From a virus: a stretch of 12,526 nucleotides of DNA. The notes beneath the pieces were generated by a model. That model was given only the letters and a program-made list of their open reading frames with translations, had not been told where the DNA came from and did not search any database. The stretch is from the IMG/VR virus record IMGVR_UViG_3300005936_000004; one strand, 5' to 3'. Of the stretch, positions 1 to 12,526 are shown in pieces; position 1 is the first letter of the stretch, and every line of letters begins with the position of its first letter. Both the position numbers and the translations under genes were made by a program.

Positions 1-120
1 ATGTTCCTAAAAATATAAAAGGAGAAATACAAGTTAATGTTCCCATAGGAATAGCAAATCCCTCAGCAGTAGATGAAAGTGTAAACATGCAAGTAATAGT
101 AAAAGTCTATCATTTTGACG
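1..120. repeat. Terminal direct repeat, left copy (circularisation overlap or terminal redundancy)
   Basis: Bases 1-120 are identical base for base to 12407-12526 by direct comparison. The repeat lies inside a continuous ORF. Confidence 0.95.
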
Positions 121-470
121 GTTCAACCGAAACTCAATTAGGAAGCACAGCAACAAGCACATTATATACCATAGGAAATTTAAACTCTGGAGGACTTGCA
201 AGAATGTCTGCAAACGCATTATTAAAAGTTACACAAGCAACAACTAAAAGATTTAAGGCAGGAGAAATATTAAGAGTAACTGTTGAAGGCTGGTTTGAAG
301 CAACAACTGGGGCAAATAGTTTAATAGCAGCAATAGGACTTGACCCCTCAAACAGACCAGACACAAAAGAACCATCAACAATTGCATCTAATAAATTAAG
401 ACCACAAATTATTGTAACAGGCCAACCAACAAGATTAAGTATAAACGTTCCATTTCAATTAGATATATAA
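1..470 (+). CDS. Same 234-aa ORF, 3' part (continues from 12172 across the junction; first full codon at 3)
   Basis: Mapping 12407 to position 1 puts codons at 3, 6, ... 87, the same frame as track ORF 87..470. Bases 3-86 translate without a stop (VPKNIKGEIQVNVPIGIANPSAVDESVN). Total length is 235+470=705 nt, or 234 aa. The protein is beta-rich with no motif I recognise. Confidence 0.7.
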   Translation, partial: VPKNIKGEIQVNVPIGIANPSAVDESVNMQVIVKVYHFDGSTETQLGSTATSTLYTIGNLNSGGLARMSANALLKVTQATTKRFKAGEILRVTVEGWFEATTGANSLIAAIGLDPSNRPDTKEPSTIASNKLRPQIIVTGQPTRLSINVPFQLDI

Positions 471-471
471 A

Positions 472-1572
472 ATGCCAGAAACAGAAATAAGCTCAGCAAG
501 TGAAAGTGATATTACAGGGATAGTCAAAGACGAACCTGTTAGTTCAAACACCCCCGATAGTGCAAGTGATTCAAAAGAAACAAAATGGCAGGATGATGAG
601 TTCTATGAAAGATTTGGTTATTACACAGACCCAAAAACTCCAGAGATAACTGCAGTGATTGATGCAAGAGCAACATGGACTGTTGGAAAAGGGTTTAAAG
701 CAGAACCCGCAGCAAAGTTTATCTTAGATGGGATTAGAGGAAATGGTTTTGATTCATTCAACACCATCCTAGAAAACGCAATGAGAACTATGCTGATTGG
801 TGGGAACTTCTACGCAGAGATTATAAGAGATGATTCTGGAAACTTGATTAATCTTAAACCATTAGACCCTGGAGTAATGTCTAATATTGCAGATAAGGAA
901 GGACAGATAATAAGATTTGAACAAAGCTCTAAAGTTAAAGGAAAGAAACCTAAAACCTTTGCAAGAGATAAAATATTTTATCTTCAAAGGAATAGGGTAT
1001 TAGATGAGATTCACGGGAGAGGTATTATTCAAAAACTTAAACTAATTCTTGATATGAAGACAGAAGCGATGCAAGACAGCAGAACAATCAATCATCAGTT
1101 CGCTTATCCAAAGTGGATAGTTCACTTAGACAGCGACGACGATACAAAGATAGCAGCGTTCAAACAAAAGTATGATGGAATAAATGAAAGCGGACAACCA
1201 ATAATTTACGTTCCTAAAGATATTGTAGTTCCAGAACTTGTTGCAGTTGCGCCAAATGCTTCAATCTCATTATTACCTTGGATAAATTATCTTGATAATC
1301 AATTCTATCAAACTGCTGGAACTCCAAAGATAATCGTAGGAGGTGGTTCAGAGTTCACAGAGAAAGCATCATCAATAGTTTATCTAGCCTTCCAACAGAA
1401 CACAGAAGAAGACCAGCTTTTTTTTGAAGAGCAAGTAGGTTTGCAATTAGGTTTGGAAATAAATTTAGAGTTCCCTGTAAGTTTGGAGAATGAATTGCTT
1501 AGCGATGAGAAGAAAGACCCAGACCCTACAACAGTTCAACCTAACGAAACAACCGCAGGAGCAGGACAATGA
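472..1572 (+). CDS. Putative portal protein
   Basis: 366 aa, located between the terminase block and the capsid block. Segments IHGRGIIQKLKLILDMKTEAMQDSRTINHQFAYPKWIV and FYQTAGTPKIIVGG resemble conserved stretches of HK97/SPP1-type portal proteins as I remember them. The C-terminal tail is acidic. No search was run. Confidence 0.65.
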   Translation: MPETEISSASESDITGIVKDEPVSSNTPDSASDSKETKWQDDEFYERFGYYTDPKTPEITAVIDARATWTVGKGFKAEPAAKFILDGIRGNGFDSFNTILENAMRTMLIGGNFYAEIIRDDSGNLINLKPLDPGVMSNIADKEGQIIRFEQSSKVKGKKPKTFARDKIFYLQRNRVLDEIHGRGIIQKLKLILDMKTEAMQDSRTINHQFAYPKWIVHLDSDDDTKIAAFKQKYDGINESGQPIIYVPKDIVVPELVAVAPNASISLLPWINYLDNQFYQTAGTPKIIVGGGSEFTEKASSIVYLAFQQNTEEDQLFFEEQVGLQLGLEINLEFPVSLENELLSDEKKDPDPTTVQPNETTAGAGQ

Positions 1573-1715: not shown

Positions 1716-2956
1716 TGGGAACTGGATTTAGCACAACTAGCAGAAGAAAGAAAAAGAGTAGTGTAACACAGAAATCACCAACTCAAGAATCAACACCAAC
1801 TCCAATTAAGATAAGAAGCGACCAAGCACTTGTTAAGGAAAAGTTTGGAGATACTGTTGAAGGTATTGGTTCACCCGAGATTGAGAGAATAAGAAGAGGA
1901 GAAGCTGGAAGGGTATTTGAGGAACAAGTAAGAGGGGCAGACCCCGGGCAAAGACTTGCAGGAGCAGAGAACTTTCAAGCTAATTTTACCCCTGAACAGC
2001 AACAAAGAAGAGAGAACTTATTATCTGGAGCAGAAGGTTTTGAACAAGAAGCGTTTTTTAACCCACCCCCAAGAGTTGATTTATCACAGAGTGGGTTTGA
2101 ACCTAGACCAGAAGAAGAACAAGGACAAGAACAAGGAGCATTCAGACAAGCATTAAGAAATGTTACAAGGGGAGCGGAGGAATTAACTGGGCAAGCAGCA
2201 GCACAGAGAATTCTAAGTGGGGAAGCAAGTCAAGATGATTTCTTTGCAGTATTACCATTACCTGGAGGAATTACAGGAATAAAGGGGGCAATAGCTGCAA
2301 CAGGTTTAGCAAGATCCGCAAAAGTTGCAGCAAGATCCGCAAAAGTTGCAGGAGCAAAGGGGGCAATAGCTACAACAGGTTTAGCAAGACCCGCAAAAAA
2401 AGCAGCACAAGCAATAAAACCAGGACAGAGTTTAATTAAGAATTTCATAGATGTTGATACTCCAGCATTTAGGAAAGAGTTTGGATTAACAAATGAACAA
2501 ACAAGAGCATTAACAAAACAACTAGGGAATAGGAGAGTTAATGAGGTTGCAGACTTTCTAACCAAAGGAGCAAACCCACAAAAGACAATAGGGAAAAGAA
2601 TAGGTGATACTCTGAAAGCAAATAAAGGAACAATCGGATTAGCTGTGGGAGTTAGTGGAACCATGACATGGTTAGCATCAGATAATATTATTGGTGGAGT
2701 TACAATATTCTCAAATACAATAAGGGATGCAGTAACCTTTGGACAAATGTCTCCAGAGGAAGGATTAGCATCATTAGATTCAGCACAAGAATTTATAAAC
2801 GATGCAAAAACTTTTATCAATGTTAATACTGCCTTGAATCCAGTATTATGGCCTTCAAGAAATCTAGCACTAACAAACACAGAAGTCGCACAATTACAAA
2901 TAGATACAAATAAACTTTTAATGAATCAAAATGGAGGTCAAACAAATGGAAAATGA
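1715..2956 (+). CDS. Hypothetical structural-module protein with basic/disordered N-terminus and in-frame tandem repeats
   Basis: 413 aa. GGGGTGA lies 7 nt upstream of the ATG. The position between portal and scaffold-like genes is where minor head or internal proteins are commonly encoded. It contains the repeat GIKGAIAATGLARSAKVA / ARSAKVA / GAKGAIATTGLARPAKKA and a hydrophobic segment GTIGLAVGVSGTMTWL. Confidence 0.75.
   Translation: MGTGFSTTSRRKKKSSVTQKSPTQESTPTPIKIRSDQALVKEKFGDTVEGIGSPEIERIRRGEAGRVFEEQVRGADPGQRLAGAENFQANFTPEQQQRRENLLSGAEGFEQEAFFNPPPRVDLSQSGFEPRPEEEQGQEQGAFRQALRNVTRGAEELTGQAAAQRILSGEASQDDFFAVLPLPGGITGIKGAIAATGLARSAKVAARSAKVAGAKGAIATTGLARPAKKAAQAIKPGQSLIKNFIDVDTPAFRKEFGLTNEQTRALTKQLGNRRVNEVADFLTKGANPQKTIGKRIGDTLKANKGTIGLAVGVSGTMTWLASDNIIGGVTIFSNTIRDAVTFGQMSPEEGLASLDSAQEFINDAKTFINVNTALNPVLWPSRNLALTNTEVAQLQIDTNKLLMNQNGGQTNGK
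2281..2398 (+). repeat. Nested in-frame tandem repeats (43-nt unit repeated at 75-nt period; perfect 21-nt duplication inside)
   Basis: 2281-2323 and 2356-2398 differ at 2 positions. The unit gcaagatccgcaaaagttgca occurs back to back at 2309-2329 and 2330-2350. Confidence 0.9.
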
Positions 2957-3251
2957 ACAAACGTCGAATGAAGAAGGAGAAAAAACTCAGGGAGAAAGTA
3001 ATTCAACTCAAGAGGGAGAAGGTGAAGGAAAGAAAACGTTATCAAACTTAGACAGAGCAGACTTAAACGTTGAAGCTATGAAGAGAGAGAATGATAGAAA
3101 AGAAGAACTAATCACTCGAGAAGAAAACTTAGCTGCGAGAAAGATGGTCGGTGGAGAAGCAGAAGCTGGAAGCCCATCAAACGAACCTAAGAAAGAAACT
3201 AACTCTGAGTATGCTGAGAGAATCCAATCTGGAGGAGAATATGGAAAATAA
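2946..3251 (+). CDS. Acidic, charged protein; putative scaffolding protein
   Basis: I prefer the ATG at 2946 because GGAGGT (2933-2938) lies 7 nt upstream; the track start is 2931. The 101-aa product is rich in E/K/G/S, has a predicted helical charged core (DRADLNVEAMKRENDRKEELITREENLAARK), and lies upstream of the capsid gene block. Confidence 0.5.
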   Translation: MENEQTSNEEGEKTQGESNSTQEGEGEGKKTLSNLDRADLNVEAMKRENDRKEELITREENLAARKMVGGEAEAGSPSNEPKKETNSEYAERIQSGGEYGK

Positions 3252-3429
3252 AGAAACTAAAATCCCAAAAGATTTAGGGATAAAGATTGGAACACCTTTA
3301 GAAGTTCTATGGACTAATGTTAAAAAGCAAACTGAAAGCTTAATCGAAAAGATTGAGAATGATTTAATAATCAATAAAGAGTTATTGAAAGTTGCTAAAG
3401 ACAAAATTCTACTAGAGCAAAGGAAATAA
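3241..3429 (+). CDS. Hypothetical small helical protein (62 aa)
   Basis: I prefer the ATG at 3241, preceded by GGAGGA at 3231-3236, over the track start 3151, which would overlap the previous gene by about 100 nt. Translation is MENKETKIPKDLGIKIGTPLEVLWTNVKKQTESLIEKIENDLIINKELLKVAKDKILLEQRK. Confidence 0.5.
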   Translation: MENKETKIPKDLGIKIGTPLEVLWTNVKKQTESLIEKIENDLIINKELLKVAKDKILLEQRK

Positions 3430-3435
3430 CAAAGG

Positions 3436-3443
3436 TTTAAATA
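3436..3443 (+). promoter_or_regulatory. Candidate archaeal-type TATA box (TTTAAATA) for the capsid operon
   Basis: TTTAAATA ends 21 nt before the ATG at 3465. No Shine-Dalgarno motif lies in between. The geometry matches the boxes at 7836 and 9669. Confidence 0.5.
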
Positions 3444-3464
3444 TATCAATGCTTAGTGGTAACC

Positions 3465-3869
3465 ATGGCAAACGAAACTACTCTAATGGTTGAGACTGAA
3501 TTACCTATCAATTTTAAATGTGCTGATGGAGCTGGTATTGCAAAAGGTGCTATTCTTAAACTAACTGAATCAATGACTGCTATAATTACAAGCGGACAAA
3601 ATGATAAAGTTGCTGGAATCGCAGCAGAAGAGAAGATTGCAAACGATGGTAAAGTTACTATTAAAGTTTATATGGGTGGAATATTCAAAGGTGTTGCTGG
3701 AGCAGCAGTTAATGTTGGAGCTGCATTAATGACTGATGCAACTGCTAATAAGATTGAAACTGCAACTACTGGAACTGGAGCAAGTGGAATAGGATATGCT
3801 TTAGAAGCGCCTTCTGGAGATGGGCAGACTTTTATATTTAGATTACAAATTGGAGGTTCAGTTTCTTAA
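3465..3869 (+). CDS. DUF2190-like small beta protein (putative head decoration/cement-type protein)
   Basis: 134 aa from the ATG at 3465; the track start 3456 is a GTG. The pattern VAGIAAEEKIANDGKVTIKVYMGGIFKGVAGAAVNVGAAL...IGYALEAPSGDGQTFIFRL matches my recollection of the DUF2190 family. That family is typically encoded immediately upstream of HK97-fold capsid genes. Confidence 0.6.
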   Translation: MANETTLMVETELPINFKCADGAGIAKGAILKLTESMTAIITSGQNDKVAGIAAEEKIANDGKVTIKVYMGGIFKGVAGAAVNVGAALMTDATANKIETATTGTGASGIGYALEAPSGDGQTFIFRLQIGGSVS

Positions 3870-4778
3870 ATGGCAGACACAGCTGGTGAAGCAGATATTA
3901 GAGGAATTGACATCGACAAGTTAGCAAAGGGTTTTGCAGATTTAGAACCTAATGTGATTAAGAGTTTTGTAAGTTCAACTCCAACTAAAGCAAGGGAAAT
4001 GAGATGGTTTCAAAAGACTTCTGGATTTATCGACACAGCTACAACTGACGACACAGCTGGTTCTTTAATCTCAAACACTTCTGGCGGAAGACCTTTTGTT
4101 GCAGAGCAAAGTTGGACTAGAAATACATCTTACGTTAAAGAGTTCTTTGTTGAATCTCCAATGTTGTCTAACTCTGATTTGAAAGATAATGATGTAGACT
4201 TATTGACTACAACTATCAGAGACTTAGTTCGTTCTGTTCAAAGAAAAGTAGGATTGAGAATGTTTGAAATCTTATTTAATTGTTCAGCCGCTACTCCAAC
4301 ACAACCACTAACAGGAACTACAACTGTTCAAACAACAGCTTCTACTGATGGATGGGATATAGTCGCAAATGCAAATCCAATCCTAGATATTCTTAACGGG
4401 CAAATGAAAATAAGACAGCAAGGTTATGATGCTGGTAAAGCAATAATCGCTATGAACTCAATAGAGCATAAGTTCTTAATCAGTTATTTAATAAATACTA
4501 AAGGTTCAAGTATCCCTAGTTTCTCAACTGAGAAATTAAGAAGTGGTGTAGTTATGGAAATATTAGGAAACAGCGTTATAGTAGATGAAATATTTACAAC
4601 TGATTGGGTTTACCAATGGGTGCCAAATAGGGCCGCTACATGGAGAAGTTTTACTCCTCTAACATCTGCTAAGATAGTAGAACCTCTAATCGGCGCAAAG
4701 ATTAGAGTTAAAGAAGAAGGAGAGCTTATTCTACACGACCCAAACGCAGTCCATGTTATTTCTGATACAATAGGATAA
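3870..4778 (+). CDS. Putative major capsid protein (HK97-like fold)
   Basis: 302 aa, starting directly after the DUF2190-like gene stop (TAA then ATG), with GGAGGT at 3852-3857. Size, position downstream of the scaffold-like and decoration-like genes, and a T/S/N-rich beta composition fit small N4-gp56/E-like capsid proteins. The call rests on context plus overall look, not a verified alignment. Confidence 0.7.
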   Translation: MADTAGEADIRGIDIDKLAKGFADLEPNVIKSFVSSTPTKAREMRWFQKTSGFIDTATTDDTAGSLISNTSGGRPFVAEQSWTRNTSYVKEFFVESPMLSNSDLKDNDVDLLTTTIRDLVRSVQRKVGLRMFEILFNCSAATPTQPLTGTTTVQTTASTDGWDIVANANPILDILNGQMKIRQQGYDAGKAIIAMNSIEHKFLISYLINTKGSSIPSFSTEKLRSGVVMEILGNSVIVDEIFTTDWVYQWVPNRAATWRSFTPLTSAKIVEPLIGAKIRVKEEGELILHDPNAVHVISDTIG

Positions 4779-5209: not shown

Positions 5210-6027
5210 TAGCAGCTGGAGATATTAAAACTGTTGTAGCAGATAGGTTTGAACACAAACCCGCAGTTGTTCTTGATGGTGTTGATGATTATGTTTTAGC
5301 TGATGCTCATGCTGTTGCAAGAGTTGCAGCAGGAGATACTGTTGGAACTTATAGCGCATGGGTAATGGTTGATAAATTAGCAGGAGTTGATACAATATTA
5401 AGTGTAGGAGATAATAATTCTACAACAGAAGGTTTAGTTTTTAATATTGATACAAATGGAAAATTAAGAGCCATCTTAGAGTTTGGTGCAGCAGAACAAT
5501 GGGATATCGCAGAAACAGGACAATCAATTAAACCAAATGTATGGACTCATGTTACTTTGGTTCAAAATGGAACACCTCAAATGTATATTAATGGAAAAAA
5601 GATTGTAATAACAGCTTCAACAACCACAGCTTTATCTGCATGGTATAACATTTTAGCTAACTGTGATAAATTTGCAATTGGAGTTGAAGAAACAAATGCA
5701 ACACACATAAACGATTATGGGGGAGCAATAGGAGAAGTAAAATATTGGAATAAAGCTTTAACTGCAGATGAAATATATAATGATTTTCAAGGAAATGTTT
5801 TAAGTGATGATGGAACTTATTTACAATTAGATATTAACATGGATGGAGATGTTACAGATGCAGGACTTGGAGCTGATGATGGAACTCTTGTAGGTAACGC
5901 ATATCTTGACCCAGAATTTGCACAATTAACTTCTAAACTAAGAGTAATGGGCCCAGTAGTTGCTGATAATTTCTCAATAGCAGCAACACAAGGAAGCATA
6001 CATGCAGTAGTTGTTAAAGCAGCGTAA
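5209..6027 (+). CDS. LamG / concanavalin A-like lectin domain protein, apparently starting at a non-ATG codon (ATA at 5209)
   Basis: The track ORF starts at M 5365, but the same frame is open from 5176. It encodes the typical N-terminal LamG strand (PAVVLDGVDDYVLADAHAVARVAAGDTVGTYSAWVMVDKL) before that Met. Downstream motifs WTHVTLVQNGTPQMYINGKK and GAIGEVKYWNKALTADEI are classic Laminin_G_3 features. No ATG, GTG or TTG occurs in frame between 5176 and 5364. Confidence 0.7.
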   Translation: MAAGDIKTVVADRFEHKPAVVLDGVDDYVLADAHAVARVAAGDTVGTYSAWVMVDKLAGVDTILSVGDNNSTTEGLVFNIDTNGKLRAILEFGAAEQWDIAETGQSIKPNVWTHVTLVQNGTPQMYINGKKIVITASTTTALSAWYNILANCDKFAIGVEETNATHINDYGGAIGEVKYWNKALTADEIYNDFQGNVLSDDGTYLQLDINMDGDVTDAGLGADDGTLVGNAYLDPEFAQLTSKLRVMGPVVADNFSIAATQGSIHAVVVKAA

Positions 6028-6058: not shown

Positions 6059-6223
6059 ATGGCAAATACTATAAGCGAGAAAGAACTAAAAACTAATTGG
6101 CCTAATGAGGAAGGTTTAACTGCAAGAACACAGAAACAAACTGGCAGACAAATGAACCTTCTACCCGAGGGATTGAATGGGATTAAGACTGTTATTCTGG
6201 AAAGAGATAAGGAGTTAATGTAA
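6059..6223 (+). CDS. Small hypothetical protein (54 aa), coupled to the fibre-like gene
   Basis: Translation is MANTISEKELKTNWPNEEGLTARTQKQTGRQMNLLPEGLNGIKTVILERDKELM. Its TAA overlaps the ATG at 6223 (TAATG). It is below the track threshold. Confidence 0.5.
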   Translation: MANTISEKELKTNWPNEEGLTARTQKQTGRQMNLLPEGLNGIKTVILERDKELM

Positions 6224-7668
6224 TGGCAAGACCACCAAGTGCTGATAGTATTATTAGAAATGCTAAACAAGCTGAGCGTAAGATTGAAACTCATGCAAAT
6301 ATTGCGAGTGGGATGATTCTACCAAATAATTCTGGTGACCACACTAAAGGGATTAAGAGAGATGTGCCAATCAATGATTATGATTTAGTTAACAAAAAAT
6401 ATGTTGATGATGAAATAGGCTCAGACCATCCACATCAAGATGTTCAAACAACTGCTTCTCCAACATTTGTGAAGATTGATGGAGGAGAAGGGTATTTTTA
6501 TGATGGAACTAACAGTGTTGGTTTAACAGATAGCACTAACGCAATAACTTCTTACGGAGATGTTGTGTTTAATAATGGAGATATTAAACAACCATCAGAT
6601 ACTTCAAGACATTATTTTGGTTTAAGTGATGATGCTTATATAGAATTTGATGGAAGCAAAATGAATATAATTGCTAACGCAGTTACTGCTACAGATGATA
6701 TGTATTTACAAGCAGATGGTCATTATTTTACTACAACTGCTAATACAGATATTTTCTTATGGTTTGTTGGAACCTCACATACTGGTTTAATGAAATGGGA
6801 TGAAAGTGCAGACACATTTCAATTTAATGATAAGGTTAGATTAGTTAGCGATTTATGGACTCAAGGTAATGCTGGTTTTGGAAGAGCTGTTGCTTCTAAT
6901 AATAGAGTATCTATTCAACATAATACTGCAGTAACTGGTTCAACACAAATAGCTACAAATTCACAAATAGTTTATGGAGCAGGTAGTGCTTCTAATTCTG
7001 CTGTGGCTCATTATGCTTTATTTTCAGATTTTTCAACAAGTGCTACATATTCAGGAAATATGACTAATAACGTTTATGGATATTCAGGTGTTTTAAATCA
7101 TTATGGAAGTGGAGATTTAGCAAAAGCAAAAGGTATGAGTTTTCAAATTAACAACAGAAATACAGGGAATTTAGCAAGTCCTCAAACTATGGTAATAAAA
7201 GCAACTTCAAATTTAGGAGCTGGTTCAGTAACCGGTAGTCCAGTAGGTTTATATTTAGAAGAACAAACATTAGGGACAACTCCATGGCAAGTTTATTCTG
7301 TTGCTGGAAATTGGAATTTAGGAACTGGAAATTTAGAAACTACTGGAAGAATATCAACAGGACAATCAACTTTTTCAACAACAGGACCAACAGATAATGT
7401 GGATGTTTCAGGGATTAATTCTTTACTGATTGACGCTTCAAGTAACACCGTAACCATTGGAGGTTTTACTGGTGGAGTAGCTGGACAAATTTTACATATT
7501 GTATTAATCGATTCAACTAACCATTTAATATTAGAGAATGAAGAAGGAAGCGCGTATCAAGATTTAATTATGCATCAGGGAACTGATGAAGAAATTGACA
7601 AGGGTGGAGTAACTATGGTTTGTGATGGAACAGATTGGTTTGATTGTTCACATGCTAAACACGCATAA
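6223..7668 (+). CDS. Putative tail-fibre / receptor-binding-like protein
   Basis: 481 aa with AAGGAG 8 nt upstream. The N-terminal motif DYDLVNKKYVDDEI resembles the D-x-V-N-K-x-YVD motif common in phage fibre and spike N-termini. The rest is G/N/S/T-rich, repetitive beta-type sequence. It is the last gene of the structural block. Confidence 0.5.
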   Translation: MARPPSADSIIRNAKQAERKIETHANIASGMILPNNSGDHTKGIKRDVPINDYDLVNKKYVDDEIGSDHPHQDVQTTASPTFVKIDGGEGYFYDGTNSVGLTDSTNAITSYGDVVFNNGDIKQPSDTSRHYFGLSDDAYIEFDGSKMNIIANAVTATDDMYLQADGHYFTTTANTDIFLWFVGTSHTGLMKWDESADTFQFNDKVRLVSDLWTQGNAGFGRAVASNNRVSIQHNTAVTGSTQIATNSQIVYGAGSASNSAVAHYALFSDFSTSATYSGNMTNNVYGYSGVLNHYGSGDLAKAKGMSFQINNRNTGNLASPQTMVIKATSNLGAGSVTGSPVGLYLEEQTLGTTPWQVYSVAGNWNLGTGNLETTGRISTGQSTFSTTGPTDNVDVSGINSLLIDASSNTVTIGGFTGGVAGQILHIVLIDSTNHLILENEEGSAYQDLIMHQGTDEEIDKGGVTMVCDGTDWFDCSHAKHA

Positions 7669-7713
7669 ATTTATAAAACTAAAAATAATCCCACCCCCAC
7701 GATTAAAAACGTT

Positions 7714-7733
7714 CTTTCCTTTGGGAAGTTTTT
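7714..7733 (+). terminator. Hairpin plus T5 tract, candidate terminator of the structural operon
   Basis: ctttcc (7714-7719) pairs with gggaag (7723-7728) including one G-U, with a 3-nt loop, and is followed by ttttt (7729-7733). It lies 46 nt after the fibre stop. Confidence 0.45.
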
Positions 7734-7830
7734 ACTCGCCCCCCCTATGTCATATATTACGCATGGGCTAGTGTTCCATAAAAAATGAGAGAGTTACAGC
7801 GTCGGTGTTAAAGGTTATAGTCTATCACCG

Positions 7831-7843
7831 ATATGTTTATATA
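7831..7843 (+). promoter_or_regulatory. Candidate archaeal-type promoter (ATATGTTTATATA)
   Basis: TTTATATA (7836-7843) ends 21 nt before the ATG at 7865. 12 of 13 positions are identical to the element at 9664-9676. There is no SD upstream of 7865. Confidence 0.55.
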
Positions 7844-7858
7844 GTTGTTGTTGTTGTT
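7844..7858. repeat. (GTT)5 microsatellite between TATA box and start codon
   Basis: gttgttgttgttgtt, read directly from the sequence. Confidence 0.9.
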
Positions 7859-7864
7859 AATACT

Positions 7865-7987
7865 ATGAAAACAAAAACAAGTGAAATTAAATGCAAAAAA
7901 TGCAAACACAAATGGATAACTAAAAGCAAACTAGGAATTCTTATTTGTGCTAGTTGTGGGAGCAAAGTTAAAAATGAAAACAATTAA
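7865..7987 (+). CDS. 4-Cys zinc-ribbon protein (40 aa)
   Basis: I prefer the ATG at 7865 over the track start 7805, which would run through the promoter. Translation is MKTKTSEIKCKKCKHKWITKSKLGILICASCGSKVKNENN, with CxxC-x17-CxxC. Confidence 0.6.
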   Translation: MKTKTSEIKCKKCKHKWITKSKLGILICASCGSKVKNENN

Positions 7988-8147
7988 AGAATATTTGGAT
8001 AAAGCAGTATTATCAGAATTAGAAGCTGGATACGTAACAGCATTAAAAGATGTCTTAGCGTTGATTGATGAAATAACACCTGTACATATAAGGATGGGTA
8101 GTAATACCACAGCAATTAGAGAACTAAAAAAGAGGATTGAAGGATGA
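7974..8147 (+). CDS. Hypothetical small helical protein (57 aa)
   Basis: I prefer the ATG at 7974; the track start 7947 is a GTG. The gene overlaps the zinc-ribbon gene by 14 nt. Confidence 0.5.
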   Translation: MKTIKEYLDKAVLSELEAGYVTALKDVLALIDEITPVHIRMGSNTTAIRELKKRIEG

Positions 8148-8181
8148 CATATTTAATTGATGACAATGGAGGTATAACAAA

Positions 8182-8547
8182 ATGATATTAGAATTAAGCG
8201 GAGACTACCTAAAAGCAGAAGATGTTAAAGGTGGCGAAATAGTTACGTTTAGAGATGCGGGTGTAGGAGCAGAACTAACAAGCCCAGAGGGAAAGGTTAA
8301 GAAAGTTATTAACTTTAAAATTGAACTAGGCGATAAAGCTAAGAGCTACACACCAAACAGAACAGCTTTAGAGTTGTTTGTAAAGGCTTGGGGTAAAGAC
8401 ACTAGTGTTTGGATTGGTAAGCAATTCAAGATTAACTTAATTAAGGTTAATGTGTTTGGAACTCTTAAGGATAGCATAGCGCCAGAGATATTGGCTGGTG
8501 AACAAGCACCAATAAACACTCAAACCGTAGAAACTGTTAAGATGTAG
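8182..8547 (+). CDS. Hypothetical protein (121 aa), beta-rich; a possible OB-fold/DNA-binding role is only a guess
   Basis: GGAGGT (8168-8173) lies 8 nt upstream. No motif confidently recognised. Confidence 0.65.
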   Translation: MILELSGDYLKAEDVKGGEIVTFRDAGVGAELTSPEGKVKKVINFKIELGDKAKSYTPNRTALELFVKAWGKDTSVWIGKQFKINLIKVNVFGTLKDSIAPEILAGEQAPINTQTVETVKM

Positions 8548-8754
8548 ATGGATATCACAAAAGAAACAGATATGTTTGAGAGTGGTGCATCTAAGTCAGC
8601 TGTTAAGCTTATCAAGAACTCTAAAGGTATCAACTGGGAGATAAAGGTTGTTGCTGGTGAAGAGCATTTGATTGAGGGTTTAAAGATGATTGCGTTGAAG
8701 ATGCACAGAGAGTTAGAAGAAGACTTATTGGATAGCAATCTAATGCTAAAGTAA
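8548..8754 (+). CDS. Hypothetical protein (68 aa)
   Basis: The ATG directly follows the previous TAG. This is the last gene before the large noncoding region. Confidence 0.55.
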   Translation: MDITKETDMFESGASKSAVKLIKNSKGINWEIKVVAGEEHLIEGLKMIALKMHRELEEDLLDSNLMLK

Positions 8755-8766
8755 ATTATTATTAAG

Positions 8767-8781
8767 CCCTCACTTAGAGGG
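8767..8781 (+). terminator. Short hairpin after the last early gene (possible terminator element)
   Basis: ccctc (8767-8771), loop actta, gaggg (8777-8781), 13 nt after the stop at 8754. No T tract follows, so terminator function is uncertain. Confidence 0.3.
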
Positions 8782-8897
8782 TATATGGGGATGAGGGGTT
8801 TAATCACCTCCTCACCTCTTTACAAAGCTAGGCTAAGCGTAGTGTATTACTCCTGCAACACAGCAGGCTCTGGCGATGGCTTTATTAAGCTGTGATG

Positions 8898-8925
8898 CTT
8901 TAGCTCAGCGTACGCTGAGCTAAAG
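8898..8925. repeat. Perfect 28-bp palindrome
   Basis: ctttagctcagcgt / acgctgagctaaag. The two 14-nt halves are exact reverse complements with no spacer. Confidence 0.95.
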
Positions 8926-9095
8926 AGATTATAGCTTAGTAACTACGTCTGGCTTGGGATTTGCAGGTTTGTAGTGTGTAAAGAATATTAACGCTGTGCT
9001 TATGCTGTGCTGGTGAGTATTAACCTTTTATAGATTCCAATCTACTTAAAGCTACTGCCTCAAACTAGTGAGCAACGCTAGGAAGTTCCTGCGCT

Positions 9096-9123
9096 AATAG
9101 GCTAGTGCAAGCACTAGCTTATT
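9096..9123. repeat. Inverted repeat: GCTAGTGC-AA-GCACTAGC, extended to 13 pairs with one G-T
   Basis: 9101-9108 is the exact reverse complement of 9111-9118. The flanks aatag / cttatt extend the pairing. Confidence 0.9.
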
Positions 9124-9132
9124 CTATTCCAC

Positions 9133-9153
9133 GCAAGCCAGTGTTGGGCTTGC
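9133..9153. repeat. Hairpin, 7-bp perfect stem (gcaagcc / ggcttgc), 7-nt loop
   Basis: Read directly from the sequence. Confidence 0.85.
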
Positions 9154-9163
9154 TTCCCAACCC

Positions 9164-9185
9164 GCTAAGCTGTGCTGTGCTTAGC
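9164..9185. repeat. Hairpin, 7-bp perfect stem (gctaagc / gcttagc), 8-nt loop containing GCTGTGCT repeats
   Basis: Read directly. GCTGTGCT also occurs at 8993-9000 and 9004-9011. TAAGCTGTG occurs at both 8886-8894 and 9166-9174. Confidence 0.85.
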
Positions 9186-9265
9186 TCCCCATAGCCCCAC
9201 CCCTCCATCCCTCCCTCCCTCCTTCCTTCCTATGCGATTATTGGCTTCTCTTCTCTCTTCTTATC
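9184..9265. repeat. Polypyrimidine (+) / polypurine (-) tract with G-quadruplex / i-motif potential
   Basis: C runs of 3-4 occur at 9187-9190, 9195-9198, 9200-9203, 9209-9211, 9213-9215 and 9217-9219, separated by 1-5 nt. The CT-rich stretch then continues to about 9265. Confidence 0.85.
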
Positions 9266-9282
9266 TAGGAGCCCAGCCACAG

Positions 9283-9326
9283 ATTTTATAATTTTAAAGG
9301 ATTAGATTTTAAAATATTATATATAT
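9283..9326. other. AT-rich block (candidate DNA unwinding element)
   Basis: Only 3 of 44 bases are G/C. It contains agatttta twice (9281-9288 and 9304-9311). Confidence 0.5.
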
Positions 9327-9494
9327 GTGTGTTCACCAGCTAGAGCCTAACACCTCACCAGCGAAGTGCTATAAACTAGCATAGCATAACAGACCCCCAA
9401 CTCGCCGAGCGTTCGAGGCGTCAGATGGTTTATGCGTCCCTTGACCAAATTTTGAGAAGGTAGGAATCACCTTTTAACACAAACACACATATAT
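9321..9494. repeat. 13-bp perfect inverted repeat (atatatgtgtgtt / aacacacatatat) bracketing a 148-nt GC-rich core
   Basis: 9321-9333 is the exact reverse complement of 9482-9494. The enclosed 9334-9481 contains local hairpins at 9367-9372/9381-9386 and 9455-9461/9469-9475. Confidence 0.85.
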
Positions 9495-9595
9495 TAATTG
9501 ACCAAATAGCCCCTCCTGTTTCATTATTAATTATTAACAAATTACGTTGTCATTAAGGGTTTGATGTAAATACACTTTTAACTTTATTATTTCAC

Positions 9596-9615
9596 CTATC
9601 TTCATTCGAAGATAG
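9596..9615. repeat. Perfect hairpin/palindrome ctatcttc-attc-gaagatag upstream of the 9664 promoter
   Basis: 8-bp perfect stem read directly. It sits in an AT-rich region about 50 nt upstream of the TATA box, so it may be an operator. Confidence 0.8.
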
Positions 9616-9663
9616 TCTTATTAATATTAAATTTTATTTAAAGAAATATGTCCTGAATTATAC

Positions 9664-9676
9664 ATAAGTTTATATA
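9664..9676 (+). promoter_or_regulatory. Candidate archaeal-type promoter (ATAAGTTTATATA) for the packaging/structural operon
   Basis: TTTATATA (9669-9676) ends 22 nt before the ATG at 9699. There is no SD. It nearly matches the element at 7831-7843. Confidence 0.55.
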
Positions 9677-9698
9677 TGAATGATGTTAGACATATATT

Positions 9699-9947
9699 AT
9701 GGCAGGAAGAAGTAGATATTCATTTGCATTAGAGTTTGTTAAACAACTCAAAGGAGAAGGTTATGATGAAATTGGATTAATGAGTCTTAGAGAGAAGATG
9801 ATGATGCACTTAGGTTCTGATGAAAGAACTCTCCAGAAATACGCTCAACTCATGGTTTCAACTAAATTACTTAAAGACATGGGAATAGGGTGTAGATTTA
9901 AGATTATGATTCCTAAAGAAGCTAAGAAAGGGCAAAAGAGATTATAA
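9699..9947 (+). CDS. Putative winged-helix DNA-binding protein (82 aa)
   Basis: The helix-turn-helix-like segment SDERTLQKYAQLMVSTKLLKD is followed by a wing-like MGIGCRFKI and a basic tail. It is the first gene after the noncoding region and lies upstream of the terminase. It could be a regulator, an origin binder or a small-terminase equivalent. Confidence 0.4.
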   Translation: MAGRSRYSFALEFVKQLKGEGYDEIGLMSLREKMMMHLGSDERTLQKYAQLMVSTKLLKDMGIGCRFKIMIPKEAKKGQKRL

Positions 9948-10159
9948 TGGCTAGAAAACAAGTAACGCAAAGGCACCACATCAGCTATCCAGATGAACCC
10001 GCTGGAGAGATATTAGTTACCTTATACAAGGGAGAACACTGGGCTATTACAGTATTAAATAGGCGTAAGAAGAACATGAGTAAGGGCTTTCTAAGGTGTT
10101 TGCAGGAGTATATTGATTCTCACGCGGAGCAGGCGGTGGATTTAGATGCAGAAGCTTGA
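9947..10159 (+). CDS. Hypothetical protein (70 aa) immediately upstream of the terminase
   Basis: TAATG overlap with the previous gene and a 14-nt overlap with the terminase gene. It contains RHHISY...GEHWAI. Any link to His-Me (HNH-like) nucleases or to a small terminase is unverified speculation. Confidence 0.55.
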   Translation: MARKQVTQRHHISYPDEPAGEILVTLYKGEHWAITVLNRRKKNMSKGFLRCLQEYIDSHAEQAVDLDAEA

Positions 10160-11423
10160 GCTGGATAAGTGGCAAAAGGAAGTATTGGCTACGAGTGGTA
10201 ACAAAGCCATATGTTCTGGGCGACAATCTGGTAAATCTACTATTATCTCGCAGGATGGAGGGGAATACGCTGCTAAGAACAAGAACAAGAGTATTATGAT
10301 TATCGCAGCAACAGAGAGACAAGCATTACTTCTATTCGAGAAGGTTTTAAGCTATTTACATGATAATTACAGAAAGATGATACTCTCTGGAGTAGATAGA
10401 CCAACTAAGCATGAGTTGAAGCTAAACAATGGAACTATAATAAGATGTTTGCCAACAGGTGATAGTGGTTATGGTATCAGAGGTTTCACAATCGATAGAT
10501 TATACGCAGATGAAGCAGCTTTTATCTCAGAAGACGTGTGGGCGGCTGTAACGCCTATGCTGGCAACAACTGGGGGGGATATTGTTTTGTTATCTACACC
10601 ATTTGGAGCAACTGGTTATTTTCACAGATGTTTTCATGATAAGAACTTTACATCTTTCCATGTGAACACGGAAGAAGTTGCTCGAGGAAGAGAAGAACCA
10701 CAAAAGAGCAATATGCTAGAGTTCTTGAAAGATGAGAAAGAGAGAATGACTAAGTTACAATATCAGCAGGAATATTTGGGATTGTTTGTTGGTGGAATTA
10801 TGAGACTCTTTGAACCAGAATTAATAGATAAGGTTTGCACTATCACCCCTGGGGCTGTCATCCATCCAGGAGGTGATAACTTCTTAGGAGCAGACATAGC
10901 CCGCCATGGTGGGGATGAAACGGTTTTAATATCAGCTAAACGAAGAGGAGAGATATTAAGAATGTTTGAACTAGACATCCCAGAAGCTCAAGCATTAACA
11001 AACACAGCAAGACTAATGATTCACAAAGACTTTCTCTATGATTACAAGAAGATGTATATTGATGATGGTGGTATGGGGATTGGGGTTTATGATATTCTTT
11101 TTGAAGATGAACAAACTAAAAGAAAAGTTGTAGGGATTAATAACGCTAAACGTAGCATTGATAGATTGAAGGGAGCTGATAAAGATAGGAAAGTTCCAAT
11201 GATGAAAGAAGACCTTTATATGAATTTAAAGAACTTGATGGAGAAAAGTTTGATTGAATTGTTTGATGATGCAAGATTAAAGCAAAGCTTAAAATCTATG
11301 CAATACGAATACTCAGAAGGTGGGAAGTTGATAATCTATGGGAACTACTCCCATATTGCAGAAGCATTGATTAGAGTTGCGTTTGCGATGAAAGACAAAA
11401 CTTTAAAACTTTGGGTGTGTTAA
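10146..11423 (+). CDS. terL: Terminase large subunit
   Basis: 425 aa. Walker A is CSGRQSGKST. Walker B with the catalytic Glu is RLYADEAAF. The coupling motif is VLLSTPFG. The C-terminal RNase H-like nuclease signatures are LGADIARHGGDETVL and MYIDDGGMGIGVYD. GGTGGA lies 5 nt upstream of the ATG. Confidence 0.93.
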   Translation: MQKLELDKWQKEVLATSGNKAICSGRQSGKSTIISQDGGEYAAKNKNKSIMIIAATERQALLLFEKVLSYLHDNYRKMILSGVDRPTKHELKLNNGTIIRCLPTGDSGYGIRGFTIDRLYADEAAFISEDVWAAVTPMLATTGGDIVLLSTPFGATGYFHRCFHDKNFTSFHVNTEEVARGREEPQKSNMLEFLKDEKERMTKLQYQQEYLGLFVGGIMRLFEPELIDKVCTITPGAVIHPGGDNFLGADIARHGGDETVLISAKRRGEILRMFELDIPEAQALTNTARLMIHKDFLYDYKKMYIDDGGMGIGVYDILFEDEQTKRKVVGINNAKRSIDRLKGADKDRKVPMMKEDLYMNLKNLMEKSLIELFDDARLKQSLKSMQYEYSEGGKLIIYGNYSHIAEALIRVAFAMKDKTLKLWVC

Positions 11424-11790: not shown

Positions 11791-12172
11791 TTTTAAACGA
11801 TTCCCTGAATTAACAAACAGGCAGATGAACTTATACTATTTTGAAAGCCCACACAAACAGATAACTCAGGACTTTGTAGCTAAGGTTGTGAAAGTAACTG
11901 ATGGAGACACAATAAGAGTTAAGTGGGAAGATAGAGACTTTGACTTTCCTATTCGTTTTATAGATATTGCAGCCCCAGAACTTGATGAGATTGGTGGAGC
12001 TAAAAGCCAGAGTTGGTTGGAGAGTGAGATTTTAGGGGAAGAAGTAACTGTTGTTATGGATAGAAAAAACAGAGTGGAGAAGTGGGGAAGACTTTTAGGA
12101 AGAATATTATTTAGAGGGATTGATATTAATCAAGCAAGCATGAACGGAGGTTTTTCGATAAGATTTGAATAA
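11780..12172 (+). CDS. Staphylococcal nuclease (SNase/thermonuclease) fold nuclease
   Basis: VTDGDTIRV, IRFIDIAAPE, EEVTVVMDRKNRVEKWGRLLGRI and GIDINQASMNGGFS match the SNase family pattern (DGDT...R-x-x-gIDaPE...D-x-yGR-x-L...G-x-diN). It has overlapping starts and stops with both neighbours. Confidence 0.85.
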   Translation: MAHDFKRFPELTNRQMNLYYFESPHKQITQDFVAKVVKVTDGDTIRVKWEDRDFDFPIRFIDIAAPELDEIGGAKSQSWLESEILGEEVTVVMDRKNRVEKWGRLLGRILFRGIDINQASMNGGFSIRFE

Positions 12173-12526
12173 TGACATTACCAGGAGTTTTTAATCAGAG
12201 GGAACAGTTTGTTAATTATGATTGGGTTGATATTGCAAATGGAACGGGTTATGTTGAATATTATGGAGCGTTATGTAATGGTGGATTAGAAACAACAACA
12301 CCGAGAAGCACAGTTAGTTCAGAGTTCATAAAGATAGTAAATCCAATAGGAGGAATAGCAAACGCATTAACTCAACTATTTAATTTAGATTTTGATATAG
12401 AATTTAATGTTCCTAAAAATATAAAAGGAGAAATACAAGTTAATGTTCCCATAGGAATAGCAAATCCCTCAGCAGTAGATGAAAGTGTAAACATGCAAGT
12501 AATAGTAAAAGTCTATCATTTTGACG
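12172..12526 (+). CDS. Hypothetical virion-module protein, 5' part of a 234-aa ORF that crosses the genome junction
   Basis: The ATG at 12172 overlaps the preceding TAA (TAATG). My translation (MTLPGVFNQREQFVNYDWVDIANGTGYVEYYGALCNGG...) has no stop to the window end. The ORF is missing from the track only because it runs off the end. Confidence 0.7.
   Translation, partial: MTLPGVFNQREQFVNYDWVDIANGTGYVEYYGALCNGGLETTTPRSTVSSEFIKIVNPIGGIANALTQLFNLDFDIEFNVPKNIKGEIQVNVPIGIANPSAVDESVNMQVIVKVYHFD
12407..12526. repeat. Terminal direct repeat, right copy
   Basis: Exact 120-nt copy of 1-120. This implies a unit genome length of 12,406 bp. Confidence 0.95.

Follow-up and report, generated by a model that had tools for sequence, protein, structure and literature searches.

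The non-coding island

A small virus (IMG/VR record IMGVR_UViG_3300005936_000004; the whole analysed stretch of 12,526 nucleotides (nt) is referred to as the window) carries a 944-nt non-coding island at positions 8755-9698. The island lies between the stop codon (8752-8754) of a gene for a 68-amino-acid (aa) protein, which borders it on the 5' side, and the ATG (9699) of an 82-aa gene, which borders it on the 3' side and heads a packaging operon made up of the 82-aa, 70-aa and large terminase (TerL) genes. An exact 120-nt direct repeat is present at both ends of the window, and the unique genome is therefore 12,406 nt long, complete and assembles as a circle; the island takes up 7.6% of it, the share already given by an earlier inspection of the letters (referred to as the sequence-only reading). 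The reading preferred here, with confidence only slightly better than even, is that the island is a single large intergenic control region, organised as a four-part mosaic, of a circularly assembling head-tail virus of ~12.4 kb that is verdandivirus-like and without replication genes. The four parts and their proposed roles are as follows:

8755-9232, part 1: palindromes, GCTGTG repeats and a C-tract capable of forming a G-quadruplex (G4); a putative DNA-level platform for protein binding, which would most likely serve as the assembly site for host replication factors and/or a small DNA-binding protein of the virus
9234-9291, + strand, part 2: conserved core, the putative promoter of the virus family, made up of an upstream box, a spacer, a box resembling the B recognition element (BRE) and a TATA box
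~9318-9684, + strand, part 3: autonomous, lineage-restricted module, in which a core of ~110 nt has a fold supported by covariation; a candidate gene for a small non-coding RNA (ncRNA), which would be transcribed from the abutting TATA box
9669-9698, part 4: predicted leaderless promoter of the 82-aa gene

Coding capacity, structure and constraint

The island is devoid of coding capacity. The sequence-only reading had reported no open reading frame (ORF) of 60 aa or more, and none of even 40 aa or more is found inside 8755-9698 in any frame; the sole overlapping ORF is an antisense one of 95 aa (8520-8807), which covers the first 53 nt. Each of the six frames contains all three stop codons, so that alternative genetic codes do not rescue a gene, and the decaying gene that had been put forward as an alternative is rejected on account of these stops and of the constraint among strains described below.

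The G+C content is 0.451 over 8761-9480 compared to 0.362 in the rest of the window, and 60-nt windows peak at 0.57-0.63 at 9135-9195 (the maximum outside the island is 0.55), in good agreement with an earlier hand count of ~45% with blocks of 55-58%. The lowest-GC block of the genome (0.26) also falls within the island, and AT-rich blocks at 9281-9330 and 9500-9698 adjoin the palindromes, with no initiator sites identified. GC and AT skew flip sign at 9000-9450; GC skew is useless as an origin marker here, since every gene is on one strand.

The island was described as containing a 28-bp palindrome, a long-range 13-bp inverted repeat and at least five further perfect stems, all of which are present, the further stems numbering at least six:

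8767-71/8777-81, + strand: first hairpin, CCCTC-ACTTA-GAGGG (8767-8781), 13 nt past the stop codon
8883-8942: long hairpin with the perfect 28-bp palindrome (8898-8925) as its core
9101-08/9111-18, 9133-39/9147-53 and 9164-70/9179-85: three perfect hairpins of part 1 (9101-9185)
9321-9333/9482-9494: 13-bp long-range inverted repeat, the outer helix of the module (9321-33/9482-94)
9457-61/9469-73: helix P4 of the module
9596-9603/9608-15, + strand: hairpin CTATCTTC-ATTC-GAAGATAG (9596-9615), followed by a T-rich tail

The polypyrimidine tract of ~80 nt, at 9186-9265, holds in composition (84% pyrimidine) but consists of two runs split by the conserved box GCGATTATTGG.

The island is also structured beyond chance. 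Compared to shuffled sequences, the fold energies of the + and - strands of 8755-9190 have z-scores of -5.7 and -6.0, respectively, and that of 9310-9520 has z = -3.1, with coding control regions between +1.0 and -2.8. The sequence-only reading had recognised no RNA family, and Rfam likewise holds none that matches at the gathering threshold: a permissive search of the window gave a sole match on the palindrome, to MIR860 at 26.8 bits (gathering score 89), which was rejected as chance hairpin similarity far below the gathering score, and the same search on seven relatives gave no matches. The island contains no terminator run of five or more T; scans for sigma-70 promoters returned weak 9-of-12 matches only and those for intrinsic terminators one hairpin, so that these scans do not favour reading the virus as bacterial.

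When the proteins encoded on either side of the island were looked up for exact matches, ~15 independent contigs of the same virus emerged from ENA, JGI and NCBI assemblies, all of them >99.2% identical to the window; the virus occurs in JGI samples 3300023256, 3300023297 and 3300023061 and in the ENA ERZ2731xxxx runs. Over the 944 nt of the island these contigs differ at 3 positions, which form one haplotype (8926 A>T, 8930 T>G, 8935 delC) and are confined to the outer 3' arm of the long hairpin at 8883-8942, whereas about 56 positions vary in the 2,870 nt of the flanks (6885-8754 and 10160-11159), a rate that would predict ~18 in the island. A spacer free of constraint would not be expected to vary less than coding DNA, and the island is functional and constrained, as had been proposed from its appearance.

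The conserved core and the probable promoters

Related loci, designated by L-numbers, comprise 87 TerL-related ones in the nucleotide comparison and ~95 in other searches. By nucleotide similarity to the 87 loci the island is alignable only at 9195-9320, and an iterated nhmmer profile places the core, 9234-9291, in 44 of 88 sequences (E = 6.5e-20 for the window). This core is very likely a promoter of the archaeal type, a family-wide element at the centre of the island that the sequence-only reading did not foresee. Its components, and the other promoter-like elements of the island, are:

9234-9243, + strand: box A, GCGATTATTG
9266-9283, + strand: box B, TAGGAGCCCAGCCACAGA, separated from box A by a pyrimidine spacer
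9284-9291, + strand: TATA-like TTTTATAA, reading CACAGA-TTTTATAA
9306-9316: second, palindromic TATA-like box, ATTTTAAAAT, abutting the module
9669-9676 (element 9669-9701), + strand: TTTATATA, putative promoter driving the 82-aa gene, whose ATG (9699) follows 30 nt on and lacks a Shine-Dalgarno sequence

The consensus of the core is TTATTA-GCGATT(A/G/C)TTG, ~24 T/G-rich nt and TAGGA(A/C)CCCAGCCACAAA-TTTT(A/T)AAA. The A/T-rich 8-mer is preceded by a purine-rich CACAAA, and an A/T octamer (TTTTAAAA or TTTTATAA) is spaced 28-30 nt from a following ATG without a Shine-Dalgarno sequence in 10 of 17 relatives, which is the geometry of an archaeal leaderless BRE/TATA promoter and is also that of the 82-aa gene in the window. 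The next ORF, either TerL or a small gene, begins 12-29 nt past the aligned core in most relatives, and the 3' half of the core is therefore read as BRE and TATA box, and the 5' half as a putative upstream control element that would act with some partner. In most relatives the core would start a leaderless mRNA of TerL or a small gene 30 nt on, and in the window it points into the module. Putative transcription start sites are thereby assigned to the core and to the promoter of the 82-aa gene. At the latter, the spacing of TTTATATA predicts a leaderless mRNA, and the same geometry is found in L002 (TTTAAATA at 5637, ATG at 5666), L004 and L001. The palindromic ATTTTAAAAT corresponds to the palindromic TATA that sister lineages carry between the module and the 82-aa gene.

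The whole core is found in frame inside an intact TerL ORF, with no upstream copy, in L012, L017, L018, L029 and L043. These copies (L012 1189-1260, L017 5331-5396, L018 1291-1362, L029 2236-2306 and L043 771-835) lie in the linker between the ATPase and nuclease domains and are translated roughly as KRFLNDLNITRGEPQPQILKYN. Seven contigs (L032, L052, L030, L062, L015, L054 and L050) begin 8-50 nt 5' of box A, which far exceeds random breaks and could reflect either assembly failure in a hypervariable, C-rich or hairpin stretch, or physical ends. Given the in-frame TerL copies and the contigs starting near box A, the core appears to be more than a basal promoter.

The inverted module

The conserved module at 9318-9684 is inverted relative to the neighbouring genes when compared to sister lineages, as seen by BLAST for L122-124, L125-128 and L129 and by sequence and covariance model for L130. 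In blastn comparisons, window 9318-9684 matches the reverse complement of L122 3692-4041 (64%), 9361-9655 that of L125 44-349 (69%) and 9320-9523 that of L129 1-201 (78%), and this identity of 64-78% is as high as that of adjoining coding DNA. Homologues of the 82-aa protein are found in only four other clusters.

A covariance model (R1) was built from five lineages, alongside a shorter one (R2). The window module scores 171.5 bits with R1 and 98.5 bits with R2, and scores across the five lineages are 143-179 bits. In the distant L075 the module is found by the covariance model (41.6 bits; 76.8 with R2) and is antisense to the neighbouring gene; a 67-aa gene beside it was considered as a counterpart of the 82-aa gene and rejected as not homologous. 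The R2 search of about 95 loci revealed no further copies beyond six lineages, and what a pattern scan recovered from IMG/VR was the strain of the window itself, apart from four stretches unmatched by R1. Present in 6 of ~95 loci, the module is therefore an accessory, self-contained cassette, and as a self-contained unit it survived the inversion that separates the window from five sister lineages. The inversion is an evolutionary event and not a switch, since the orientation is the same in all 15 contigs and the genome encodes no recombinase. The module is highly likely to be functional. Its elements, in addition to the outer helix and P4 given above, are:

9319-9498, + strand: structured part, the ncRNA candidate, with its core domain at 9379-9478
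9384-89/9430-35: helix P3
9397-9402/9423-28: helix P3b
9403-06/9417-20: helix P3c
9510-9524, + strand: conserved C-rich block CCCCTCCTGTTTCAT (CCCUCCUGUUUCAU), 12 nt 3' of the structure

The fold is supported by covariation. In the six-lineage alignment 92.5% of cells are paired, compared to 86.6 +/- 1.0% in shuffles and 26-58% when the partners are slid; 8 pairs have changed on both sides versus 2.6 +/- 1.1 in shuffles (0 of 500 reach 8) and at most 3 in slid controls, and the covariation score is 0.273 versus 0.160. Compensation in the module helices includes CGCC/GGCG to CACC/GGTG to GACC/GGTC, GCAUAA/UUAUGC to GCUUAA/UUAAGC, and AAGGU/ACCUU to AGAGU/ACUCU to UAGG/CCUA, each in either direction. 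P3 and P3b/c contain nine G.U and no A.C appositions (five versus two in the outer helix), and G.U without A.C in the central helices favours an RNA read from the + strand of the window. Compensatory changes beyond the controls, with G.U tolerated and A.C not, are the generic marks of a structured ncRNA, and the module probably acts as an RNA. The sequence-only reading had considered a structured RNA in the direction of the genes, which may hold for a covariation-supported module of ~110-290 nt at ~9319-9625 but not for the whole of 8755-9500.

The unpaired stretches ACAGACCCC, UCAGAUGG and CUUGACCAAA, the loop GGAAUC and the C-rich CCCUCCUGUUUCAU are conserved, which suggests specific contacts. 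The C-rich block lies about 9-13 nt from the structure in the other four lineages that have it, and a resemblance to an anti-Shine-Dalgarno sequence in the RNA sense is speculative. The hairpin at 9596-9615 is tentatively taken as the 3' end of the RNA; L130, L126 and L122 have a hairpin at the same position with other sequences. In the window, L122, L126 and L130 the module directly adjoins the palindromic TATA box; in L075 and L129 the box is found 10-22 nt 5' of it. Short ORFs within the module (e.g. MKQ..., 5-16 aa, reverse strand) were rejected as genes, as neither their length nor their sequence is conserved.

The hairpin block and the question of a replication origin

The sequence of part 1, 8755-9232, is lineage-specific and cannot be aligned even with the nearest relatives. 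Besides the hairpins listed above it contains:

8859 (- strand), 8889, 8993, 9004, 9169 and 9174: dispersed GCTGTG(CT) repeats, a candidate protein-binding motif
9118-9128: conserved 11-nt linker CTTATTCTATT between the first two of the hairpins at 9101-9185
9186-9232: C-rich tract, with the G4 motif GGGAGGGAGGGATGGAGGGG on the - strand at 9200-9219

Five of the seven + strand copies of GCTGTG in the genome are within the island, which bears out the repeated motifs noted earlier, and the recurrent GCTGTG(CTT), as GCTGTGCTT, is common to the island of L122, which encodes a homologue of the 82-aa protein. The motif GGGAGGGAGGGATGGAGGGG is the only canonical G4 motif of the genome (four runs of at least three G, loops of 1-7 nt), and a C-rich tract (G-rich in L004) lies just 5' of box A in ~13 of 35 relatives, as judged by eye. 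The nearest comparable island, that of L116/L036 (TerL 73%), keeps the layout of ATAGG, an 8-bp hairpin, CTTATTCTATT, a 7-8-bp hairpin, a C-rich tract and box A, with different stem sequences. In 14 relatives the island at the same position is structured (z from -1.8 to -7.8), with a GC content of 0.42-0.64 compared to 0.32-0.42 in the genomes, with one exception. The structural operon may have its 3' end at the hairpin 8767-8781, and L122 and L116 have a hairpin and T-run at the matching position. Both strands of part 1 fold equally because its stems are perfect Watson-Crick palindromes, a property no less suited to dyad sites acting in DNA than to RNA. The L122 island (2345-3700, ~1.35 kb, G+C 0.55-0.64) also contains four 22-nt tandem repeats GGAGTCGAGTCGTGTGCAATAT at 3340-3425. 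It has a 72-aa ORF that includes four copies of CTCAATGGTGGTTATTT, and its two GCTGTGCTT motifs resemble those of the window.

Relatives carry boxes of the form (G/T)TTCCA(C/T)(A/T)GGAAAT-N3-AGGT, which match the origin recognition box (ORB) of the Pyrococcus mini-ORB type, TTCCAGTGGAACT, with its invariant TTCC...GAA (PMC1904270). At 16 bits or more there are 34 matches in 22 of 95 loci versus 2 in shuffles, and these ORB-like boxes are 6-fold denser in non-coding DNA across the 95 loci. They lie in or beside the island, often as inverted pairs around AT-rich DNA, just 3' of the core; relatives with such boxes in the island are L116/L036 (L116 1846(+)/1894(-)), L022, L077, L046, L044, L040 and L129. 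The window has none: with a position weight matrix built from 20 sites in relatives, its best score is 9.6 bits, below the 95th percentile of shuffles (14.3), and a strict ORB expression has no match in the island. Since the window lacks an ORB-like box, its origin is a putative one, and the origin suggested by the sequence-only reading gains from the Orc1/Cdc6-type boxes of relatives in the same island but not from the window itself. A replication origin somewhere within the island is, by analogy with these relatives, given a likelihood just short of even.

ORB-like boxes of 24-32 bits also occur in coding DNA (L002 3742, L004 605, L013 336, L035 1627, L047 2656 and L055 1053), three of them in a conserved gene of 130-146 aa ('..VP.ETKV..') and three in TerL. 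In L116 a (TAC)9 microsatellite (1918-1944) follows directly after the inverted ORB pair and precedes the TATA box of the next gene.

The virus, its genes and its host

All convincing genes of the window are on the + strand. Those outside the immediate borders of the island include:

472-1572, + strand: portal
a further window gene, + strand: cement/scaffold-like protein
3870-4778, + strand: major capsid protein, weak match
5365-6027, + strand: ConA-like fibre protein
6223-7668, + strand: 481-aa gene
7805-7987: TFIIB/Zn-ribbon-like 60-aa protein
10146-11423, + strand: TerL, T4-type, PF03237
11780-12172: SNase-like nuclease (PHROG 452, E = 1.7e-12; Pfam SNase, E = 9e-4, 20.1 bits, cutoff 21)

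No replication, transcription or recombination protein is recognised among the window proteins, in line with the earlier failure to recognise a replication protein. Besides TerL, the only recognisable nucleic-acid-related proteins are the SNase-like nuclease and the TFIIB/Zn-ribbon-like 60-aa protein. The earlier label of winged helix-turn-helix (HTH) for the 82-aa protein is weakly supported, with no Pfam match, an AlphaFold2 (AF2) model at a pLDDT of 71 and Foldseek E-values above 1 to winged-helix domains, and neither the predicted structure nor PDB searches gave a significant match. The window has no DNA match in the INPHARED phage collection and no tRNA or tmRNA according to ARAGORN. A 234-aa gene (window 1-470 and 12172-12526), of which the ORF at 87-470 makes up the 3' part, looks split because the circular assembly was opened inside it, with the 120-nt repeat at both ends. 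Patches that vary among strains (5547-5712, 5773-5786, 6885-7007 and 7650-7661, including a 12-nt indel) fall within the ConA-like gene and the 481-aa gene and look like diversification of host-recognition proteins.

The TerL family comprises 1,772 proteins at E <= 1e-60, many of them on contigs of 11-13 kb, and its members come from sediments, groundwater and Antarctic saline lakes. The host is very probably an archaeon, given the leaderless TATA geometry, the ORB-like boxes in relatives, archaeal genome bins and the parallel with verdandiviruses; the closest bin matches carry the labels 'uncultured archaeon' and 'Nanoarchaeota', and a Heimdallarchaeaceae metagenome-assembled genome contains one TerL. 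Such a host, to which TATA geometry and bins point, was not anticipated by the sequence-only reading.

Several relatives have features of their own. In L017, from Loki's Castle sediment, genes for tRNA-Ala and tRNA-Met (1139-1220 (-) and 3155-3222 (-)) lie 5' of TerL together with minus-strand ORFs; they may mark a provirus junction or be virus-borne, and Pfam searches of the flanking ORFs gave no host clue. The complete L002 has a second GC-rich non-coding block (4100-4427) with a tRNA T-arm-like GCAGGTTCGAATCCTGC, in which ARAGORN calls no tRNA and which may be an attP-like tRNA fragment. The contigs of L046 (Ga0222658_1000054, 77 kb) and L115 (ERZ27316532 k141_1882, 17.6 kb, TerL 77%), of which 12 kb each were examined, are far longer than the ~12-kb genome and could represent integration, a concatemer or a larger relative.

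Alternative explanations

The control-region reading has to be weighed against several others, the closest of which makes the island above all a replication origin, with the palindromes and the G-rich tract recruiting Orc1/Cdc6-MCM, unwinding starting in the AT-rich 9281-9330 and 9500-9698, and the promoter and module aiding firing through transcriptional activation or priming. A window in which no replication gene is found, relatives whose ORB-like boxes sit in this very island, often in inverted pairs to either side of AT-rich DNA, and an island holding both the only G4 motif and the lowest-GC block of the genome would all fit an origin, as would a module indifferent to its orientation, which could be a DNA element. 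This explanation is nonetheless rather unlikely: the window is without an ORB-like box anywhere, the skew is uninformative with all genes on one strand, some boxes of relatives are found within coding DNA remote from the island, and the G.U-over-A.C asymmetry and compensatory changes of the module are features of RNA more typically than of sites in duplex DNA. A pac or cos site, read by the downstream terminase and residing especially in the core, is less probable again. The island is directly 5' of the 82-aa, 70-aa and TerL genes, the five relatives that keep the whole core inside TerL suggest a position-independent DNA function tied to the terminase, and seven contigs begin close to box A; yet a fixed TATA-to-ATG spacing of 28-30 nt is a property of promoters, C-tracts and hairpins alone can break assemblies, and the complete assemblies (the window, L002, L006, L022 and L077) close on overlaps of 101-127 nt away from the island, inside coding DNA (the window, L022 and L077) or at a gene boundary (L006), which indicates circular or permuted genomes. 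A pac site lying somewhere within the island, without further claims, is improbable but slightly less so, and neither this estimate nor that for the origin excludes that the core is a promoter or that the module is functional and acts as an RNA.

There is little likelihood that 8755-9500 is one large structured RNA in the direction of the genes. The very low folding energy of 8755-9190 (z = -5.7) would be consistent with it, and with no run of five or more T in the island, read-through from the upstream operon is possible; the reverse strand, however, folds equally well (z = -6.0) from perfect Watson-Crick palindromes, 8755-9190 is not conserved even in lineages that keep 9318-9684 at 64-78%, a conserved promoter in the middle of the region points downstream, and Rfam has no match. 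Least probable is a decaying gene, a neutral spacer or a programmed invertible switch. The module, whose orientation is reversed compared to relatives, has AT-rich quasi-palindromic TATA-like sequences at its borders, as an invertible segment could have, but no recombinase domain was found and all 15 independent contigs are collinear with the window; a decaying gene would be at odds with the lack of ORF remnants and with stops of all types in all frames, and either a decaying gene or a spacer with an island that is more conserved among strains than the flanking coding DNA.

Several observations nevertheless weigh against the reading of the island as a four-part control region. Placing the putative origin in part 1 proceeds by analogy, and the 11-nt linker is the only alignable sequence that part 1 shares with relatives. 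The low-diversity block extends over the two downstream genes (9699-10288), so that linkage or a recent sweep could contribute, and the strain contigs were selected for encoding identical neighbouring proteins. The covariation comes from six lineages only, in an alignment fitted to the model, and alifold energies are alike on both strands (-19.4 and -19.7). The position of the TATA box predicts a start 3' of the 5' arm of the 13-bp repeat, in which case the 'closing stem' may not be part of the RNA; that the module yields an RNA, from which strand and with which ends, we infer from sequence. Some genome bins of relatives are labelled bacterial.

If the control-region reading is extended, the island can tentatively be seen as a mimic of a cellular origin, through ORB boxes in relatives and through a putative initiator platform of palindromes and G4 in the window. 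One sub-lineage would have added an orientation-free ncRNA cassette, and the core would be a multifunctional cis-element, essential enough that some relatives keep it in frame within TerL; this wider idea is doubtful as a whole. Small tailed viruses of uncultured archaea (Asgard, DPANN) lack replication and transcription machinery, and the island bears on how they take over their hosts: the Orc1/Cdc6-type boxes of relatives would explain replication by origin mimicry. The promoter core in dozens of genomes, the ORB boxes and the covariation-supported RNA-like module are testable parts through which the replication and gene timing of a 12-kb archaeal virus become addressable, and the models can serve the annotation of a family with at least 1,772 TerL homologues (E <= 1e-60).

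Comparison with known systems

Verdandiviruses are tailed viruses of Asgard archaea of up to 20 kb, reported to be without replication or transcription genes (bioRxiv 10.1101/2021.07.29.453957). The virus described here resembles Verdandiviridae-like Asgard viruses in its small head-tail genome, its small genes with putative HTH and Zn-ribbon, and an origin from some of the same sediment datasets, and it shares with verdandiviruses the absence of replication and transcription genes and a full reliance on the host (bioRxiv 10.1101/2021.07.29.453957), a likeness that is drawn from the published description and not from sequence comparison. The term 'non-coding' does not appear in the main text of that paper, which was searched here for this term and not for cis-elements as such (bioRxiv 10.1101/2021.07.29.453957).

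The promoters of the island are like archaeal leaderless BRE/TATA promoters in having an 8-mer (TTTTAAAA, TTTATATA or TTTAAATA) 28-30 nt before an ATG with no Shine-Dalgarno sequence. In contrast to a basal archaeal promoter, the core reaches ~50 nt further 5' (box A, a T-rich spacer and TAGGAnCCCAGCC), is conserved across TerLs that are only 55-70% identical, and is in frame within TerL in five genomes. With archaeal chromosomal origins that carry ORB or mini-ORB sites bound by Orc1/Cdc6, the window shares the island position, the GC-rich palindromes and an AT-rich flank; it differs in having neither an ORB-like box nor an orc1/cdc6 gene beside the island, and some relatives differ in having ORB-like boxes inside genes.

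The non-coding control region (NCCR) of polyomaviruses and the long control region (LCR) of papillomaviruses are non-coding blocks of ~5-10% in genomes that encode no polymerase, and combine origin palindromes, AT tracts and G-rich elements with promoters for both gene sets. The likeness of the island to these is one of logic only, in that there would be one compact control block; there is no homology, the host belongs to another domain, and no viral initiator comparable to T antigen or E1 is evident. Phages also have small structured RNAs beside packaging or regulatory genes, such as the phi29 pRNA and the antisense regulators of lambdoid and P4-type phages. The module is similar to the pRNA type as a compact, conserved, RNA-like element beside the packaging operon that is putatively transcribed independently, and is dissimilar in having no Rfam match, in being accessory (6 of ~95 loci) and in accompanying a T4-type TerL (PF03237); to our knowledge, T4-type terminases (PF03237) need no pRNA.

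Intergenic regions that combine an origin with promoters are thus of an already known kind. As far as a limited literature search can tell, three aspects are apparently new, namely a family-wide core that includes in-frame copies in TerL, boxes of the ORB type in tailed archaeal viruses without replication genes, and an RNA-like module that belongs to no Rfam family.

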